From: Candidatus Pelearchaeum maunauluense
GTDB lineage: Archaea; Thermoproteota; Nitrososphaeria_A; Caldarchaeales; Caldarchaeaceae
DNA: 24,000 nt
NCBI GenBank assembly: GCA_030059675.1
Contig: JANVYQ010000013.1
Span: 219-24,218, forward strand
Direction: 5' to 3'
The notes under the pieces were generated by a model. That model did not search any database. It saw nothing but the letters and a program-made list of their open reading frames with translations, and was not told the DNA's origin. This document shows, piece by piece, positions 4,347-19,554 of this stretch; within the stretch, counting starts at the first letter, position 1; every line of letters starts with the position of its first letter. Made by a program: the position numbers and the translations under genes.

Positions 4347-4751
4347 TTAGGGAGCTGGCGCGCTGTCTATCGCGTCGTTGGCCAGCTTATCTGCTCCCCG
4401 ATTATCCTCCCTCCCCACGTGGATTATCTCAAAACTGTCAAACTCGGAAGCCATCTTGGAGGCCTTCTCAAACAGCTCTCTTATGCGCTCGTTCCTCACA
4501 CGATACTCCCCGCGCATCTGCTTAACCAGCAACTCGCTATCAGAATGCACCACAACATCCCTAACACCCAGCTTATAAACCGCCTCCAGCGCCATGATTA
4601 GAGCATGATACTCGGCTTCATTATTCGTCTTCACGCCCAGATACTTACTTATCCTATGCTCGTCGTCGTTGAGATAGATTATAACGCCAGCTCCCGCTGG
4701 GCCTGGATTACCACGCGCAGCCCCGTCTATGTAGATGTATGCTTTCTTCAA
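4347..4751 (-). CDS. rnhA: Ribonuclease HI (type 1 RNase H)
   Basis: IYIDGAARGNPGPAGAGVII, NNEAEYHALIMALE, HSDSELLVKQ and REDNRGADKLAN carry the RNase HI D-E-D-D catalytic pattern. The ORF track starts at TTG 4790, overlapping L10e. I prefer TTG at 4751, giving (M)KKAYIYIDGAARGN, a typical RNase HI N-terminus, 8 nt after the L10e stop. Confidence 0.85.
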   Translation of the reverse strand: MKKAYIYIDGAARGNPGPAGAGVIIYLNDDEHRISKYLGVKTNNEAEYHALIMALEAVYKLGVRDVVVHSDSELLVKQMRGEYRVRNERIRELFEKASKMASEFDSFEIIHVGREDNRGADKLANDAIDSAPAP

Positions 4752-4758
4752 GCCTACA

Positions 4759-5265
4759 TTACTGAGCCTTGGCGAGCACCTGGCGTTCAACTATGTAATA
4801 CTTCTTCGGGAGCTTCTTTGCGGCCAGCTCAAGAGCCTCCCTAGCGCGTTGAACGCCGTCGGCATATACTAGAACTCTGAAGACAGGCCGACCTGGCTCC
4901 ACGCGCGCTGCCCTCCCTACTGGCTTGCCGAAGGCGCGGCGCATACCCTCCTGAAGCCTATCCGCGTGAGCTCCGAATATCATCTTATTCTCGCGCAGGA
5001 TATGATGCGGATGCGCCTTAAGCTCTGCGAAGAAGTTCTCACCCAGCTTATCCGTCAGGAACTTGTTAAGCGTAATCCTAGCAGACTCTAGGGCAACATC
5101 CCTAATCTGGAGGCTTGTCTCTGGCATTAGGAGGAGCTCATGCGTGTAATCCTCGCGGTACGTCCCTGCGGAGAACTTTGTTATCCTGATGGGTGGTGGT
5201 CCGTGGATATACTCGTGCCTAGTGTAGGGCATCCCTTCTATTGCGCGGTAGTTCTTGGCCTTCAA
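4759..5265 (-). CDS. rpl10e: Ribosomal protein L10e (uL16)
   Basis: 168 aa. KAKNYRAIEGMPYTRHEYIHGPPPIRITKF matches the L10e N-terminal consensus. TTG start preceded by GGTGAG. Confidence 0.9.
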   Translation of the reverse strand: MKAKNYRAIEGMPYTRHEYIHGPPPIRITKFSAGTYREDYTHELLLMPETSLQIRDVALESARITLNKFLTDKLGENFFAELKAHPHHILRENKMIFGAHADRLQEGMRRAFGKPVGRAARVEPGRPVFRVLVYADGVQRAREALELAAKKLPKKYYIVERQVLAKAQ

Positions 5266-11677: not shown

Positions 11678-11778
11678 GGGCCGGTAGATCAGCGGAAGAT
11701 CGCCCGCCTTGCACGCGGGAGGTCGCGAGTCAGTCCCTGATGGGGCTGGCCGATAAGGTTCAAATCCCGCCCGGTCCA
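11678..11778 (+). tRNA. tRNA-Ala(UGC) with a 29-nt non-canonical intron in the T-arm
   Basis: Hand fold: acceptor GGGCCGG/CCGGTCC with the G3:U70 Ala identity pair; D-arm GATC-AGCGGAA-GATC; anticodon arm CCCGC-CTTGCAC-GCGGG (anticodon TGC); variable loop AGGTC. The T-stem 5' strand GCG|GG is interrupted by AGTCAGTCCCTGATGGGGCTGGCCGATAA (11728-11756), followed by TTCAAAT-CCCGC and discriminator A. No encoded CCA. Confidence 0.85.
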
Positions 11779-11780
11779 TT

Positions 11781-11804
11781 GGGGTTTCAAAACCCCCCGG
11801 CCCA
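11781..11804 (+). repeat. Degenerate copy of a tRNA 3' half (T-arm-like hairpin plus acceptor 3' strand)
   Basis: GGGGTTTCAAAACCCCCCGGCCCA begins 2 nt after tRNA-Ala. It resembles the tRNA 3' end GGTTCAAATCCCGCCCGGTCCA (about 18 of 23 positions by eye, allowing one indel). It ends in CCGGCCC-A, the perfect complement of the tRNA 5' acceptor strand GGGCCGG. Confidence 0.45.
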
Positions 11805-12149
11805 CGTTTAAACAAGCAAGCGTAAAAGGGAAAAAATAGGGAGGAGGTGGCCAGGCATTATCTGACCACCTCAAGTATAGCCTGCTTCCTGCTAATAGCA
11901 AAGCCTACAAGATTTCTGAACCGCTTTATGCTAGCCCTTCTGTAGAATGTATAGTATTATGTTGATAGTCTTTCTACGCCGTAGTCAGCAGTTTCAAGAT
12001 AGATAGACTTCAGATGGAGGGGGTTTCCCCAGGCCTAAGGCTCTTCCAAGAGCTCATGGGGGCTTGGGAGGTTCACCCTGACAGGTGATGAGGCTGACGA
12101 GGGCTCCGATGAACCCATGAGGAGCCCCGAGGTTGATGAATCCCAAGAC

Positions 12150-12506
12150 CTACGTATGCCCATGAAAGACTACGCAGGTCAGAACCCTTTTGTAACATCT
12201 TCTATTGATGGTAAATCGTCGCTTCATTGTTCTTTTGTAAATCTTAGCTTCTATTTCGAGCTTCTTTAGTAACTCGGCTGTATATCTAATGATTCTGCAG
12301 TTAGCATTTAAAATTCGTATACGTCCAAGATTGGCTGCGTCTTTGGCAACGCTGCCTTCAGCATCTGCTAGTCCTCTTATGAACGCGGCCATGCATTCCT
12401 TGCAGTGCTCTACGTAAGGCTTAAGCCTCTCTATATCTACAGGCTTCCTCAGCAGCTCGTAAAATTCTCTGCTATATATCTTGACTATCCATCGCTGAAG
12501 ACTCAT
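12150..12506 (-). pseudogene. LAGLIDADG homing endonuclease remnant (C-terminal half of a two-motif, I-DmoI-like enzyme)
   Basis: 118 aa with a single LAGLIDADG motif (AAFIRGLADAEGSV). As I recall the I-DmoI sequence, the layout parallels its second half: KIYSREFYELL ... CMAAFIRGLADAEGS ... IRILNANCRIIRYTAELLKKLEI against RVSSKKLYYYF ... QIAFIKGLYVAEGD ... LRIWNKNKALLEIVSRWLNNLGV. No first-motif domain is readable upstream in any frame. The segment is visibly more AT-rich than its neighbours. Confidence 0.7.
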
Positions 12507-12648
12507 AAGGGGACAGTTGCAGGGCTACGACCAGCACATGAACCTAGTTCTAGAAGGCGCCGAAGAGCTTCTGGCATAATGGGCAATCAAATAAGCTAGG
12601 CATGATAGTCGTCCGCGGCGACAACATAGTTATGGTTTCTCCTTCTAC

Positions 12649-12656
12649 CATAAAGA
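12649..12656 (+). promoter_or_regulatory. TATA box for the L37e-like gene (leaderless geometry)
   Basis: CATAAAGA is centred about 28 nt upstream of ATG 12681. An in-frame TAA at 12651-12653 prevents any longer ORF. Confidence 0.45.
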
Positions 12657-12680
12657 AGGAAGAGTAGAGGGGATTATTGG

Positions 12681-12821
12681 ATGGTAAAAGGCACGCCCTC
12701 GATGGGTAAATTTCACACACCCACGCATGGACGATGCAGACGATGCGCTCATTGCGGCTTCGGCTCTACGAAGACCTGGCGTAAATATAGATGGCTCAAA
12801 AGCCTCAAAGAAAGAATGTAG
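12681..12821 (+). CDS. Ribosomal protein L37e-like small protein with shortened zinc-ribbon region
   Basis: Absent from the ORF track (46 aa, under 60). Translation: [46 protein letters not shown]. The N-terminal KGTPS.GK...T.TH.RCRRC and the later CGFG....RKY.W match the L37e consensus as I recall it (Sulfolobus and Haloarcula L37e). The roughly 12 residues between the two Cys pairs, including the third Cys, are missing. Confidence 0.7.
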
Positions 12822-12855
12822 CACCTAATTCTCGTAAGCAACACTTGCATCTGTC

Positions 12856-15639
12856 TCACCCAGCTACAAGCTTTCTTATGACGTATTGCAGTATCCCTCC
12901 ATGTTTATAATACTCCACCTCTATCGGCGTTTCTAACCTTGCAATCACGTTAAATGTTATCTCTGTTCCATCATCTTTCTTTGCTTTTACTTTGAGTTTC
13001 TTTCTTGGTGTTAGGCCGTCTGCTATTCCCTCTATGTCGTATGTCTCGTGTCCTGTTAAGCCTAGTGATTTCCAGCTCTGGCCTTCTTCAAACTGTAGTG
13101 GTAGGACGCCCATTCCTACTAGGTTGCTTCTGTGTATTCTTTCGTAGCTCTCTGCTATCACGGCCCTAACGCCTAGGAGGCGTGTTCCTTTGGCAGCCCA
13201 GTCGCGTGAGCTTCCCGCTCCGTATTGCTTTCCTGCCAGGATTATGAGTGGTATGTTCTGCTGCATGTAGCGCATAGCAGCGTCATAAACGGGCATGACC
13301 TCCCCAGTTGGGTGGTAGAGCGTCCACCAGCCCTCCTTATCGGGAACGAGCTGGTTCCTCAGCCTGATGTTGGCGAACGTCCCCCTTATCATGACCTCGT
13401 GATTACCCCGCCGCGCGCCGTATGTGTTAAAATCAACCGGGTCTACACCCATGTCTATGAGGTATCTTCCAGCGGGGCTTGCTGGCGGTATTGCGCCTGC
13501 TGGGGATATGTGGTCTGTTGTTACCCTGTCTCCAAGCAGAACCAGTACCCGCGCCCCCTTTATGTCCGTCGGCGACGGTGGCTCCAGCTTGATGTCGCTG
13601 AAGAATGGGGGCTCGCGTATGTATGTGGAGCGGGTGTCCCACTCGTATATCTCGCCTCTAGGTGATTCTAGGCTCTCCCAACGCTCATCACCCCTAAAGA
13701 CGTCGGCGTATTTACGCTTGAACATCTCTGGGTCTAGAGACTTCCTGATGGTTTCTTTGATTTCTTCCATACTGGGCCATATGTCGCGTAGGTAGATTGG
13801 GTTGCCGTTTTTGTCGCTTCCTATGGGCTCGTTGAGCAGGTCTATGTCCATACGCCCAGCCAGGCCGTAGGCAACAACCAAGATGGGCGACATTAGGAAA
13901 CTAGCCCTAACCAACGGGTGGATTCTGCCTTCAAAGTTTCTATTACCGCTTAGAACGGCGACGGTGTAGAGGTCGTTATCCTTTATTGCCTTGGCAACGA
14001 CTTCGGGAAGCGGGCCGCTATTACCTATGCAGGTAGTGCATCCATAGCCGACGACGTTATACTTAAGGCTCTCAAGATACTTGGCCAGCCCTGCCCTCTC
14101 AAGATATTCTGTTACTACCATGGAGCCTGGCGCTAGGCTTGTTTTGACGTAAGGCTTCACGCTTAGACCTTTTTCCACTGCCTTCTTGGCTAGGAGGCCA
14201 GCTCCTATCATTACTGCAGGGTTTGAGGTGTTTGTGCAGCTTGTTATGGCTGATATGACTACTGCTCCATGCGTTATCTCGGTCTCTTCACCATCTACAC
14301 GGAGCTTGACGCTGGGCAGCCCCACTTTGCGGGCTACGGACTGGGCTCCAGCCGCGCCTCCTCCCTCATAAAACCAGACATGGTCATCCTCCACCTCAAC
14401 GGATATACCCCTCTGCTTAAGGTAGCTGCTCATTATCTCAATAAACCGCTTCTTCGCCTCGCGTAGTGGTATCCTGTCCTCTGGATTGGCAGGCCCAGCT
14501 ATTGAGGGCTCAACCTCGCTCATATCCAGCTCTATGACGGCGCTATACCGCGGCTCGCTGGCCTCGTCGTAGAAGAGGGCCTGGGTCTTGGCGTATTTCT
14601 CAACGAGCTTGATATGCTGCTCCTCGCGGCCTGTGAGTCTGAGGTATGATATTGTCTCCTCGTCTATCGGGAAGAACCCTACCGTAGCACCGTATTCTGG
14701 GGCCATGTTGGCTACGGTGGCCCTGTCAGCTATGCTGAGCTTCTTGAGGCCTGGGCCGTAGTATTCAACAAACTTGCCTACAACTCCGTGTTTTCTGAGC
14801 TTCTCGGTTATCGTCAGCACCAGGTCTGTTGCTGTTGAGCCGCGGGGTAGCTCGCCGTCAAGCCTTACCCCCACAACCTCTGGGATGGGCATGTAGTATG
14901 GCTGGCCCAGCATAACCGCTTCTGCCTCAATCCCCCCAACACCCCAGCCGAGAACACCCAGCGCATTAACCATAGGAGTATGCGAGTCAGTGCCAAGCAG
15001 GGTGTCGGGAAAAGCCACACCATCACGAACATCAACAACACGCGCCAAATACTCCAGATTAACCTGATGAACAATACCCCGACCAGGTGGCACAACCCTG
15101 AAATTCTTGAAAGCCTGCTGAGCCCACTTAAGGAACAGATACCTCTCGCGATTCCTCTCAAACTCCTTCTCAATATTGAGACTAAAAGCAGTAGGGGAGC
15201 CGAAGAAGTCAACCTGTATTGAGTGGTCTATTACTAGATCAACTGGGACCAGCGGGTTTATCTTGCTTGGGTCGCCTCCCAGTCTTCGCAGGGCTGAACG
15301 CATGGCCGCGAGGTCCACTACCGCGGGCACGCCTGTAAAGTCTTGTAGAAGAACGCGAGTCGGCTTAAATGGGATTTCAGAGGATTTGGAAGAAACACCA
15401 GGCCTCCAAGAAGCCAGACTCCTAACATCATCCTCGGTTACTATCTCATTATCCACGTTGCGCAGAATATTCTCCAGTAAAACTCTGATACTATAAGGAA
15501 GCTCTGACAGGGTTGTTAAGCCTTTCTTTTCCAGGCTCCTGAGGCTGTAGTATTTTACCTCCAGCCCGTCGGAAGCTAGAGTAGCCTCTACATGGCTCCT
15601 GAGCATCCCACCGCCCTTAAGGCTGCCTGTGAATACCAT
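12856..15639 (-). CDS. acnA: Aconitate hydratase (AcnA/IRP type)
   Basis: 927 aa. Fe-S ligand regions ITSCTNTSNP and GCTTCIGNSG, GTDSHT, and the C-terminal swivel domain (GKQYGAGSSRDWAAKG). Confidence 0.95.
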   Translation of the reverse strand: MVFTGSLKGGGMLRSHVEATLASDGLEVKYYSLRSLEKKGLTTLSELPYSIRVLLENILRNVDNEIVTEDDVRSLASWRPGVSSKSSEIPFKPTRVLLQDFTGVPAVVDLAAMRSALRRLGGDPSKINPLVPVDLVIDHSIQVDFFGSPTAFSLNIEKEFERNRERYLFLKWAQQAFKNFRVVPPGRGIVHQVNLEYLARVVDVRDGVAFPDTLLGTDSHTPMVNALGVLGWGVGGIEAEAVMLGQPYYMPIPEVVGVRLDGELPRGSTATDLVLTITEKLRKHGVVGKFVEYYGPGLKKLSIADRATVANMAPEYGATVGFFPIDEETISYLRLTGREEQHIKLVEKYAKTQALFYDEASEPRYSAVIELDMSEVEPSIAGPANPEDRIPLREAKKRFIEIMSSYLKQRGISVEVEDDHVWFYEGGGAAGAQSVARKVGLPSVKLRVDGEETEITHGAVVISAITSCTNTSNPAVMIGAGLLAKKAVEKGLSVKPYVKTSLAPGSMVVTEYLERAGLAKYLESLKYNVVGYGCTTCIGNSGPLPEVVAKAIKDNDLYTVAVLSGNRNFEGRIHPLVRASFLMSPILVVAYGLAGRMDIDLLNEPIGSDKNGNPIYLRDIWPSMEEIKETIRKSLDPEMFKRKYADVFRGDERWESLESPRGEIYEWDTRSTYIREPPFFSDIKLEPPSPTDIKGARVLVLLGDRVTTDHISPAGAIPPASPAGRYLIDMGVDPVDFNTYGARRGNHEVMIRGTFANIRLRNQLVPDKEGWWTLYHPTGEVMPVYDAAMRYMQQNIPLIILAGKQYGAGSSRDWAAKGTRLLGVRAVIAESYERIHRSNLVGMGVLPLQFEEGQSWKSLGLTGHETYDIEGIADGLTPRKKLKVKAKKDDGTEITFNVIARLETPIEVEYYKHGGILQYVIRKLVAG

Positions 15640-16110: not shown

Positions 16111-16228
16111 TGGTGCGGGGGGTGGGATTTGAACCCACGAACCCCTTCGGGAGCAGGTCTTGAGCCTGCCGCTTTCAAGGGGAGCTTTCCTTTGTTGCTC
16201 CTCTTTGACCAGGCTCGGCTACCCCCGC
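16111..16228 (-). tRNA. tRNA-Leu(CAA) with an approximately 30-nt non-canonical intron in the D-arm; CCA encoded
   Basis: Minus-strand hand fold: acceptor GCGGGGG/CCCCCGC; anticodon arm GCAGG-CTCAAGA-CCTGC (anticodon CAA); long variable arm TCCCGAAGGGGTTC; T-arm GTGGG-TTCAAAT-CCCAC; discriminator A plus CCA. The D-arm GCCGAGCCTGGTCAAAG|GCG is interrupted by AGGAGCAACAAAGGAAAGCTCCCCTTGAAA (about 16173-16202), which carries a GGAGC/GCTCC hairpin. Confidence 0.85.
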
Positions 16229-18657: not shown

Positions 18658-19554
18658 ATGGATAAGGCGGCTCTGCTGGGCCATTACAGCAGGCCAGATG
18701 TGATGGAGAGCATCATAGCATTCTCACGCGGTAGGTGGCTAGCCCTACACTGCGCGGAGCGCGGCAGCGATGGAAAACCAAAAATGGTTAGATACGAGCC
18801 TAATGGCAGAACACCACTAAAAATAAGCAACACGGAAGACTTTAGACGCGTGCTGCTCAGCTGCGACACGCCACGAACATTCTACGCCTCTATACATAGA
18901 TACTCTCTGCTGGAGAGGGCTGAGGATGTGCGGGACATGGATAACATAATATCCACTATGCCCACATGGGATATAGACCCTGTTGATGGATGTTGGGAGG
19001 ATGTTGTAAGGGCTGCCGTGAGTTTGGTTGGTGTTTTGGAGGAGCTGGGGGTTTCGCGCTCGGTTATTGTGAAGTGGAGCGGCGAGGGCGCTCATATCCA
19101 TATACACGGCGAGGCGTTCTCCGAGGATGTTAGGAGGAGATTCCATCCACTAGATATAGCATACGCGGCAACCGAGTATGTCTTACATAGGGCTGGTGAA
19201 ATTCCCCTAGGTGTGAAGGTAGAGAATAAGATTGACCCCCAGCGGGTATTCACCTGCCCGCTCTCCCTGCATAGAGAGCTTAACCGCGTATGTGTATGCA
19301 TAAACCCCAGCGAGCTATACTCGTTCAGCGTGGAATGGACTAGCCCAGAAAACTACCGCCATTATCAAGGCTGGCAGGAATACGTGGATGGGGAGGCCGA
19401 CGAGCTGGCCGAGAAAGCGCTACAAGCCATAGGCCCATACCCGCACCACGCGAGACGGAGGCAGCGGCGAAGGCATCCGCCACTAGACCAACACATAACA
19501 AGAACCCTGCAAAAACTATCAGGAATCGCTGAAGATGATGAAGGAGCTGGGTAG
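18658..19554 (+). CDS. Archaeo-eukaryotic primase (AEP) catalytic subunit, PriS-like
   Basis: 298 aa. AEP motifs in the canonical order: motif I TWDIDPVD (D105, D107), motif II KWSGEGAHIHI (S141-G-x-G-x-H146), motif III KIDPQRVFTCPLSLH (D193 ... H205). The N-terminal region follows the PriS pattern (RTFYASIHRY upstream of motif I). The C-terminal tail is arginine-rich (ARRRQRRRH). It starts 4 nt after the aRF1 stop. Confidence 0.55.
   Translation: MDKAALLGHYSRPDVMESIIAFSRGRWLALHCAERGSDGKPKMVRYEPNGRTPLKISNTEDFRRVLLSCDTPRTFYASIHRYSLLERAEDVRDMDNIISTMPTWDIDPVDGCWEDVVRAAVSLVGVLEELGVSRSVIVKWSGEGAHIHIHGEAFSEDVRRRFHPLDIAYAATEYVLHRAGEIPLGVKVENKIDPQRVFTCPLSLHRELNRVCVCINPSELYSFSVEWTSPENYRHYQGWQEYVDGEADELAEKALQAIGPYPHHARRRQRRRHPPLDQHITRTLQKLSGIAEDDEGAG

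Follow-up and report, generated by a model that had tools for sequence, protein, structure and literature searches.

Can a ribosomal protein L37e (eL37) that has lost the middle of its zinc ribbon still serve the ribosome, or is the gene that encodes it on its way out? The question is raised by a gene of only 46 codons in a stretch of 24,000 nucleotides from 'Candidatus Pelearchaeum maunauluense', to which we refer as a whole as the window. The sequence-only reading of this DNA had left three answers standing, namely a decaying duplicate, a zinc-independent alternative paralog and an unusually minimal sole L37e.

The product is an L37e, a variant of a known and already annotated protein with a fresh loss of 36 nt. 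Its translation is exactly the 46-residue peptide that had been read from the letters, start codon, stop codon and reading frame are intact in an ORF check, as had also been claimed, and the proposed homology is borne out by the HMM search: Pfam Ribosomal_L37e (PF01907) matches with E = 4e-9 and 36.8 bits, against a cutoff of 27.6. A comparison with PDB sequences returned 55 solved eL37 chains at E ≤ 0.01, and their alignments to the 46-residue protein fall into two pieces, one from the N-terminus through CRRC and the other from C-A-x-C-G-F-G onward, with the middle missing. The gene had been thought to be unlisted, but GenBank already holds an identical protein, MDJ0270763.1, under the name '50S ribosomal protein L37e'. 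Its source is the metagenome-assembled genome (MAG) 146_bin.21 of 'Candidatus Pelearchaeum maunauluense' (Caldarchaeales), a set of 21 contigs with a reported completeness of 95.6% and contamination of 0.97%; the published methods name Illumina libraries (stated for samples from Chile) and assembly by metaSPAdes with a k of at most 77 (PMC10547907). In 90% protein clusters the 46-residue protein is a singleton, and an exact look-up of it on contigs returned no record and no independent assembly of the locus. The features that surround the gene are collected in Table 1.

Table 1. Coordinates in the window of the short L37e gene and of the features around it, from the tRNA gene on the left to acnA on the right.
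Feature	Position (nt)	Strand	Basis or remark
tRNA-Ala(UGC), left boundary of the variable slot	11678-11778	+	Rfam tRNA, 43.8 bits; anticodon read by eye
Spacer of unknown origin, tRNA to LAGLIDADG remnant	11779-12149		Unmatched
Remnant of two-domain LAGLIDADG gene	12150-12506	-	Pfam LAGLIDADG_3, E=1e-12
Junction where LSm similarity to all relatives starts (~LSm codon 28)	12497-12505		blastn breakpoints; L117 DNA alignment
LSm pseudogene, first piece LIRGQLQGYDQHMNLVLEGAEELLA, then premature TAA	12502-12576	+	tblastn and profile matches
Extra T giving a +1 frameshift in LSm	12577	+	Comparison with L117
LSm pseudogene, second piece (29 residues), then stop codon	12578-12668	+	Profile match, E=1.6e-13
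Shine-Dalgarno-like GAGGGGAT	12667-12674	+	6 nt upstream of L37e ATG
rpl37e (eL37) with 36-nt in-frame deletion	12681-12821	+	ATG ORF, product 46 aa
acnA (aconitate hydratase), intact, convergent with L37e, right slot boundary	12856-15639	-	Pfam; blastn to L116, L105

Aligned with its seven closest relatives, which are 57-58 residues long and 78-85% identical to it outside the gap, the L37e of the window shows a single clean gap of 12 residues, CR[RCGRHSFNYRRD]RCAHC, and every residue that is invariant among the relatives outside this gap is retained. In the nucleotide alignment exactly 36 nt are missing, with ends in repeated Arg-Cys codons (CGA TGC), and the point of deletion falls in codons 20-22 (12738-12746). 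What has been lost is a conserved, Arg-rich segment, i.e., the basic beta-hairpin between the two zinc knuckles together with one cysteine; the second and third cysteines are merged, and the three that are left are arranged as C19-x2-C22-x2-C25 instead of the C-x2-C-x11-C-x2-C of a four-Cys zinc ribbon. The absence of about 12 in-frame residues and of one zinc ligand had been seen correctly from the letters. The canonical spacing had been given as C-x2-C-x14-C-x2-C, but the spacer is x11 in 104 of 104 L37e genes from the fetched loci (24 genomic and 80 metagenomic, some redundant), none of which is short, and it is x11 in a Sulfolobus structure alignment as well. Among GTDB species representatives, 19 of 19 have a full-length L37e. 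An intron, an intein or a split gene as the cause of the gap was considered and rejected, because the sequence is absent rather than inserted and because the LAGLIDADG remnant lies on the opposite strand.

The consequences for the fold were modeled with AlphaFold2, using the same 8-sequence alignment for both forms. A full-length relative is predicted with a pLDDT of 76-86 over residues 11-40 and with beta-bridges, and the 46-residue form with a pLDDT of about 50 and no beta-structure. Since zinc and rRNA lie outside the AlphaFold2 model, what this result shows is a predicted loss of an autonomous fold element, the sole one of eL37, which is predicted to be gone from the 46-residue form.

The gene had been said to have no Sm neighbour, but an LSm sequence lies directly upstream of it, though truncated and frameshifted. 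The Sm-L37e tandem, its co-transcription and the frequent presence of adjacent tRNA genes are established (PMC3710371, PMC10221803). In the window the two genes are co-oriented, with 12 nt from the end of the LSm coding sequence to the ATG of L37e. Dropping T12577 restores ELLANGQSNKLG, which equals in length the corresponding ELLSNGQSNRLG of locus L117. The first ~27 LSm codons were not found in the entire 24-kb window by a profile search with filters off (best N-terminal score -1.1 bits). A resemblance of 'LSDHLKYSLL', near 11850, to the LSm N-terminus is faint and not significant, and was set aside. The LSm gene is clearly dead, being both truncated and frameshifted.

The neighbour on the other strand had been called a decayed homing endonuclease, which agrees with what we find: it is a half-gene with one LAGLIDADG domain left, compared with homologs that are mostly 240-450 aa long. 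An exhaustive HMMER search matched these homologs via their C-terminal half (e.g., residues 135-248 of 284). Specifically, what survives is the second domain (motif AAFIRGLADAEGSV), without the N-terminal domain or the C-terminal tail; full-length homologs extend about 35 aa past the remnant's stop. The two-domain LAGLIDADG proteins P0216, P0217 (284 aa) and P0220 (315 aa) have second domains 46-56% identical to the remnant; proteins of the P0217/P0220 type comprise in addition an N-terminal extension, a first domain with the motif LAYVIGAVLGDGY and a C-terminal stretch of ~35 residues, whereas the remnant has neither that first domain nor that stretch. The ORF is probably a pseudogene fragment. 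A protein of 80 aa, P0214, is 100% identical to residues 39-118 of the remnant and is apparently a shorter call of the same ORF. Searches of the viral and plasmid collections gave no relatives of the remnant, no fetched locus holds a homolog of it, and the PDB sequences gave no informative match.

The junction between the LAGLIDADG and LSm remnants (Table 1) is also the 5' end of the former, and an in-frame stop codon stands immediately upstream of the LSm piece. Most simply, one deletion between a divergent LAGLIDADG gene and LSm would have removed the 5' ends of both together with the intergenic promoter region; going by the lengths of the homologs, we estimate that it would have taken several hundred bases, about 0.6-0.7 kb. 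On the far side of the LAGLIDADG remnant, the spacer next to the tRNA gene has no blastn or tblastn match in the fetched loci and no Rfam match, and part of it is probably what decay has left of the 3' end of the LAGLIDADG gene.

With its upstream gene cut short, how would the short L37e be expressed? In 12 of 12 relatives (L003, L006, L007, L009, L012, L013, L017-19, L023, L117, L118) a TTTAAA[AT]G box stands ~35 nt upstream of the TTG start of LSm, and this box is likely to be the BRE/TATA promoter of the LSm-L37e operon. Across Caldarchaeales the box upstream of LSm has G/A-rich flanks and precedes a TTG start codon, and gene callers are inconsistent on where LSm starts. Nowhere in the window does the + strand contain this box. 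The nearest near-match, TTTAAAAT at 12307 (+), lies 374 nt upstream of the L37e ATG and could drive read-through transcription of L37e. A 'TATA-like CATAAAGA' upstream of the ATG had been put forward as the promoter, but these letters (12649-12656) are inside the LSm codons T-I-K-K, agree with the TTTAAAWG of the relatives at 4 of 8 positions and are not among the sites of the window within 2 mismatches of it, and we do not retain the suggestion. For translation, relatives have GGAGG/GGGTGA-type motifs at the Shine-Dalgarno position of L37e, and GAGGGGAT, judged by its letters and its placement, may act as a ribosome-binding site. A scan for bacterial promoters and terminators was left aside as inapplicable to archaeal promoters. 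Elsewhere in the slot, a TTTAAAC motif (11807-11813, +) just after tRNA-Ala is followed by a 32-codon GTG ORF (11847-11945) with no recognisable homology; the motif may be the relic of a promoter, or may start transcripts that read through the slot.

The position of the gene bears on whether it is a duplicate. An LSm-L37e pair convergent with acnA is found in many Caldarchaeales loci (L003-5, L007-9, L012-15, L017-19, L023, L119-128), so that the L37e of the window, judged by gene order, is at the ancestral Caldarchaeales position and is orthologous by position. The proposal of a duplicate or paralog in an unusual tRNA-flanked island is thus only half right: the position is the ancestral LSm-L37e-acnA one, but the slot itself is indeed variable among the closest relatives. 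Specifically, the slot (11779-12872, ~1.1 kb) holds the LAGLIDADG remnant, the LSm remnant and the short L37e in the window, a FUR-family regulator and a Mn-catalase in L116 (3291-4996) and L105, and nothing in L106-108, where tRNA-Ala is directly beside acnA.

On both sides of the slot, L116 (from a Brothers-volcano metagenome) and L105 share the gene order of the window at 90-92% nucleotide identity, with Aminotran_5, RNase H, L10e, DUF655, Rpb4, L21e, Pus10, SRP54, a CarboxypepD_reg protein and an epimerase on the left, and acnA and a CBS protein on the right. Homology to L116 resumes at 12873, and the last few acnA codons differ among relatives. The flanking genes are all intact, with lengths as in L116, dS of 0.23-0.46, dN/dS of 0.02-0.11 and 94-99% amino-acid identity. 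Because the flanks are intact and constrained, the damage is limited to the slot and is no sign of poor assembly overall.

The tRNA-Ala(UGC) gene at the left boundary carries a 29-nt insertion in its T-arm (11728-11756), which its L116 ortholog lacks in a base-level alignment; the insertion folds as its own hairpin and is presumably a non-canonical intron. An apparent breakpoint inside this tRNA proved to be merely the insertion, the tRNA being complete in the window and in L116. Integration of a mobile element at the tRNA was likewise rejected: the slot shows no att-like direct repeats and no composition shift, and the tRNA is complete in both genomes. The L116 ortholog has compensatory T-stem changes (CGGGG/CCCCG against GCGGG/CCCGC), and ARAGORN misses the gene that Rfam detects. 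ARAGORN also misses a second tRNA (16114-16228, -), Leu(CAA) from its anticodon loop; its variable arm is long, and its D-arm carries an insertion of ~34 nt. Farther to the right, a 298-aa ORF (18658-19554, +) beside eRF1 has a borderline score for a LigD primase-polymerase domain, 27.6 bits with the cutoff at 27.4.

To place the lesions in time we compare the window with the LSm-L37e pairs of its relatives. The nearest LSm found, that of L117, is 84% identical and intact and is followed by a full-length L37e, and the next nearest pair, in L118, is intact and full length too. Because the nearest pair is intact and full length, the short form is not a lineage trait, a possibility that had been left for relatives to decide; all L37e examined are full length, which refutes it at the available resolution. 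In L118 (a Logan contig) the full-length L37e after LSm, at 4673-4985, is uncalled by the gene predictor, a short gene of this kind being often missed. L117 comes from the same metagenome as L116 and was considered as the LSm-L37e locus of the L116 organism, but its dS against the window is >1.5 (saturated), compared with 0.23-0.46 for the flanks, so that L117 is not the 91%-identical organism. The LSm-L37e of the L116 organism, whose flanks are ~91% identical, was not found. P0003 and P0008 were candidates for the L37e of the genus WAQC01 but were set aside, since they come from Calditenuis and from a different lineage with the order OCD-LSm-L37e-acnA.

The LSm fragment of the window has the consensus residue at every position that is ≥70% conserved among 44 unique relatives (23 positions, counted by hand), and dN/dS against L117 is 0.04-0.06 (0.06 for the LSm fragment), the same as between intact genes. 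From ~55 unchanged non-synonymous sites we estimate a neutral divergence since inactivation of at most about 0.05, much less than separates the window from L116. What is left of LSm and L37e has no further decay in its codons, so the lesions are recent. The dead LSm fragment is as clean as L37e, and the clean codons of L37e are therefore uninformative on continued selection.

Apart from the 46-residue protein itself, no second L37e or LSm of this MAG (accessions MDJ027...) appears among the listed members of related clusters, these being up to 15 members for each L37e cluster matched by the L37e of the window and for the seven closest LSm clusters; this counts as moderate evidence against a second copy. 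A native L37e could lie in the unbinned part of the genome (roughly 4%), and since the closest relatives have their LSm-L37e outside the slot, the genus may have a working copy at another place.

The explanation we favor, and to which we would give an even chance of being right, is that of a recently crippled rpl37e copy in a decaying operon at its ancestral position: a zinc ribbon that would no longer form and the loss of the native promoter point to a crippled copy. The ends of the 36-nt deletion in repeated codons are typical of slippage or of a microhomology-mediated deletion, by which it probably arose, and the truncated protein should be unable to form the zinc ribbon. The gene would also have lost its native promoter, given that the TTTAAAWG box upstream of LSm is gone and that Sm and L37e are normally co-transcribed. 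Such a copy would be on its way to loss and not an adapted zinc-free ribosomal protein, and a working L37e would probably be found in the roughly 4% of the genome that the MAG lacks. Decay is favored by the presence of three indel-type lesions within about 330 nt, beside a dead LAGLIDADG gene. Of the earlier phrase 'decaying duplicate', the adjective fits best, because the co-transcribed LSm and the adjacent LAGLIDADG gene are clearly dead, but the noun is unproven. Against decay speak an undamaged ORF with its start codon, stop codon and Shine-Dalgarno-like motif, the retention of all invariant residues outside the gap, and the lack of a second L37e or LSm among the listed cluster members, with the MAG reported as 95.6% complete. 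By chance, one deletion in three is in frame, so the intact frame of L37e is weak evidence either way. In the passages cited here, Galperin et al. warn that short ribosomal proteins should be declared pseudogenes only if the evidence is clear, and L37e is not among the frequently lost archaeal ribosomal proteins that these passages name (10.1101/2021.01.31.429008).

The points against decay are also those in favor of the 46-residue protein being the organism's only L37e and still at work, with SmAP1 lost together with the hairpin region and a new promoter upstream, for which the near-consensus TTTAAAAT offers a candidate; since the passages just cited do not name L37e among the frequently lost proteins, a sole copy would need to be functional. 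Its two basic segments that thread 23S rRNA, at the N- and the C-terminus, would then be joined directly by CRRCAHC, and the ribosome would tolerate the loss of the hairpin. This we regard as possible but doubtful: the short form is a singleton among all L37e examined, its deletion removes a conserved Arg-rich segment and the only element confidently predicted to fold, the native promoter box is gone and the neighbours are freshly dead, and the lesions are too recent for conservation to show continued selection. It is, correspondingly, rather unlikely that the ribosomes of a free-living thermophilic archaeon work with an L37e of 46 residues that has three cysteines and no zinc-ribbon hairpin, after one local event that also destroyed the Sm gene and the operon promoter. 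Alternatively, the lesions may be unrepresentative of the population, through an assembly or consensus error or because metaSPAdes chose a defective minority haplotype, most cells having an intact LSm-L37e. The locus is known from a single MAG of one sample, in a singleton cluster and with no independent assembly, the slot is known to vary between strains or species, and assembly graphs branch at such sites, and three indel-type lesions within about 330 nt stand against 20 kb of clean flanks. However, microhomologies of 6-9 nt do not collapse the graphs that metaSPAdes builds at such k, Illumina reads seldom contain single-base insertions, the junctions are not repeats, and the one between LAGLIDADG and LSm is simply explained by one real deletion; we consider an artefact or a minority haplotype improbable. 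The zinc-independent paralog of the sequence-only reading, maintained beside a canonical L37e for times of zinc scarcity like the bacterial C-minus forms, could appeal to the missing zinc ligand and, by analogy, to the FUR-family regulator in the corresponding slot of the closest relative, outside the window. It is nevertheless very improbable, as the listed cluster members include no canonical partner, the locus is the primary ancestral one and not a secondary one, the hairpin is deleted and three cysteines are kept where cysteines would have been substituted, the form occurs in one genome with no sign of an evolved family, and the adjoining genes are pseudogenes.

Either way the locus has something to tell. 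If the gene is a freshly damaged copy, which is the more likely case, it is a ribosomal marker that scores above the Pfam threshold and would be counted as present in HMM-based completeness estimates, yet is probably defective, and it points to a small hypervariable site in Caldarchaeales, beside a tRNA gene. Should the 46-residue protein instead be the only L37e, it would be a natural experiment in which the zinc ribbon of a near-universal, deeply buried ribosomal protein of archaea and eukaryotes proves dispensable; the two rRNA-threading tails would be sufficient, the Sm protein linked to L37e could be lost as well, and the case would have a bearing on what 50S assembly requires of eL37.

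Among known systems, the bacterial C-minus paralogs (L31, L33, L36 and S14, type B) resemble the L37e of the window in being zinc-ribbon ribosomal proteins without a complete set of zinc ligands. They are maintained beside a C-plus copy and are regulated by Zur, and Makarova and colleagues are said to have described in 2001 that they keep the length of the fold and substitute the cysteines. In contrast to such fold-length paralogs, the L37e of the window has its hairpin deleted, has no known partner, is a singleton and sits at the primary locus. The closer comparison is with eL37 itself (PF01907; Haloarcula marismortui, 1S72 chain 1, and a chain of PDB 8HKU). The copy in the window has C-x2-C-x2-C in place of C-x2-C-x11-C-x2-C, 12 residues fewer and, in the prediction, no confident folded core, but shares KGTPSxGK...PTH.RCRRC and C.HCGFG...YRW. 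Like other archaeal eL37 genes it lies downstream of an Sm gene with a Shine-Dalgarno-type signal, and outside the gap it is 78-85% identical to its Caldarchaeales orthologs. The archaeal SmAP(LSm)-rpl37e operon, for which co-transcription was shown in Haloferax, is conserved, whereas the Sm gene of the window is 5'-truncated, frameshifted and without the TTTAAAWG box; the gene order, the orientation and the nearby tRNA gene are nonetheless the same (PMC3710371).
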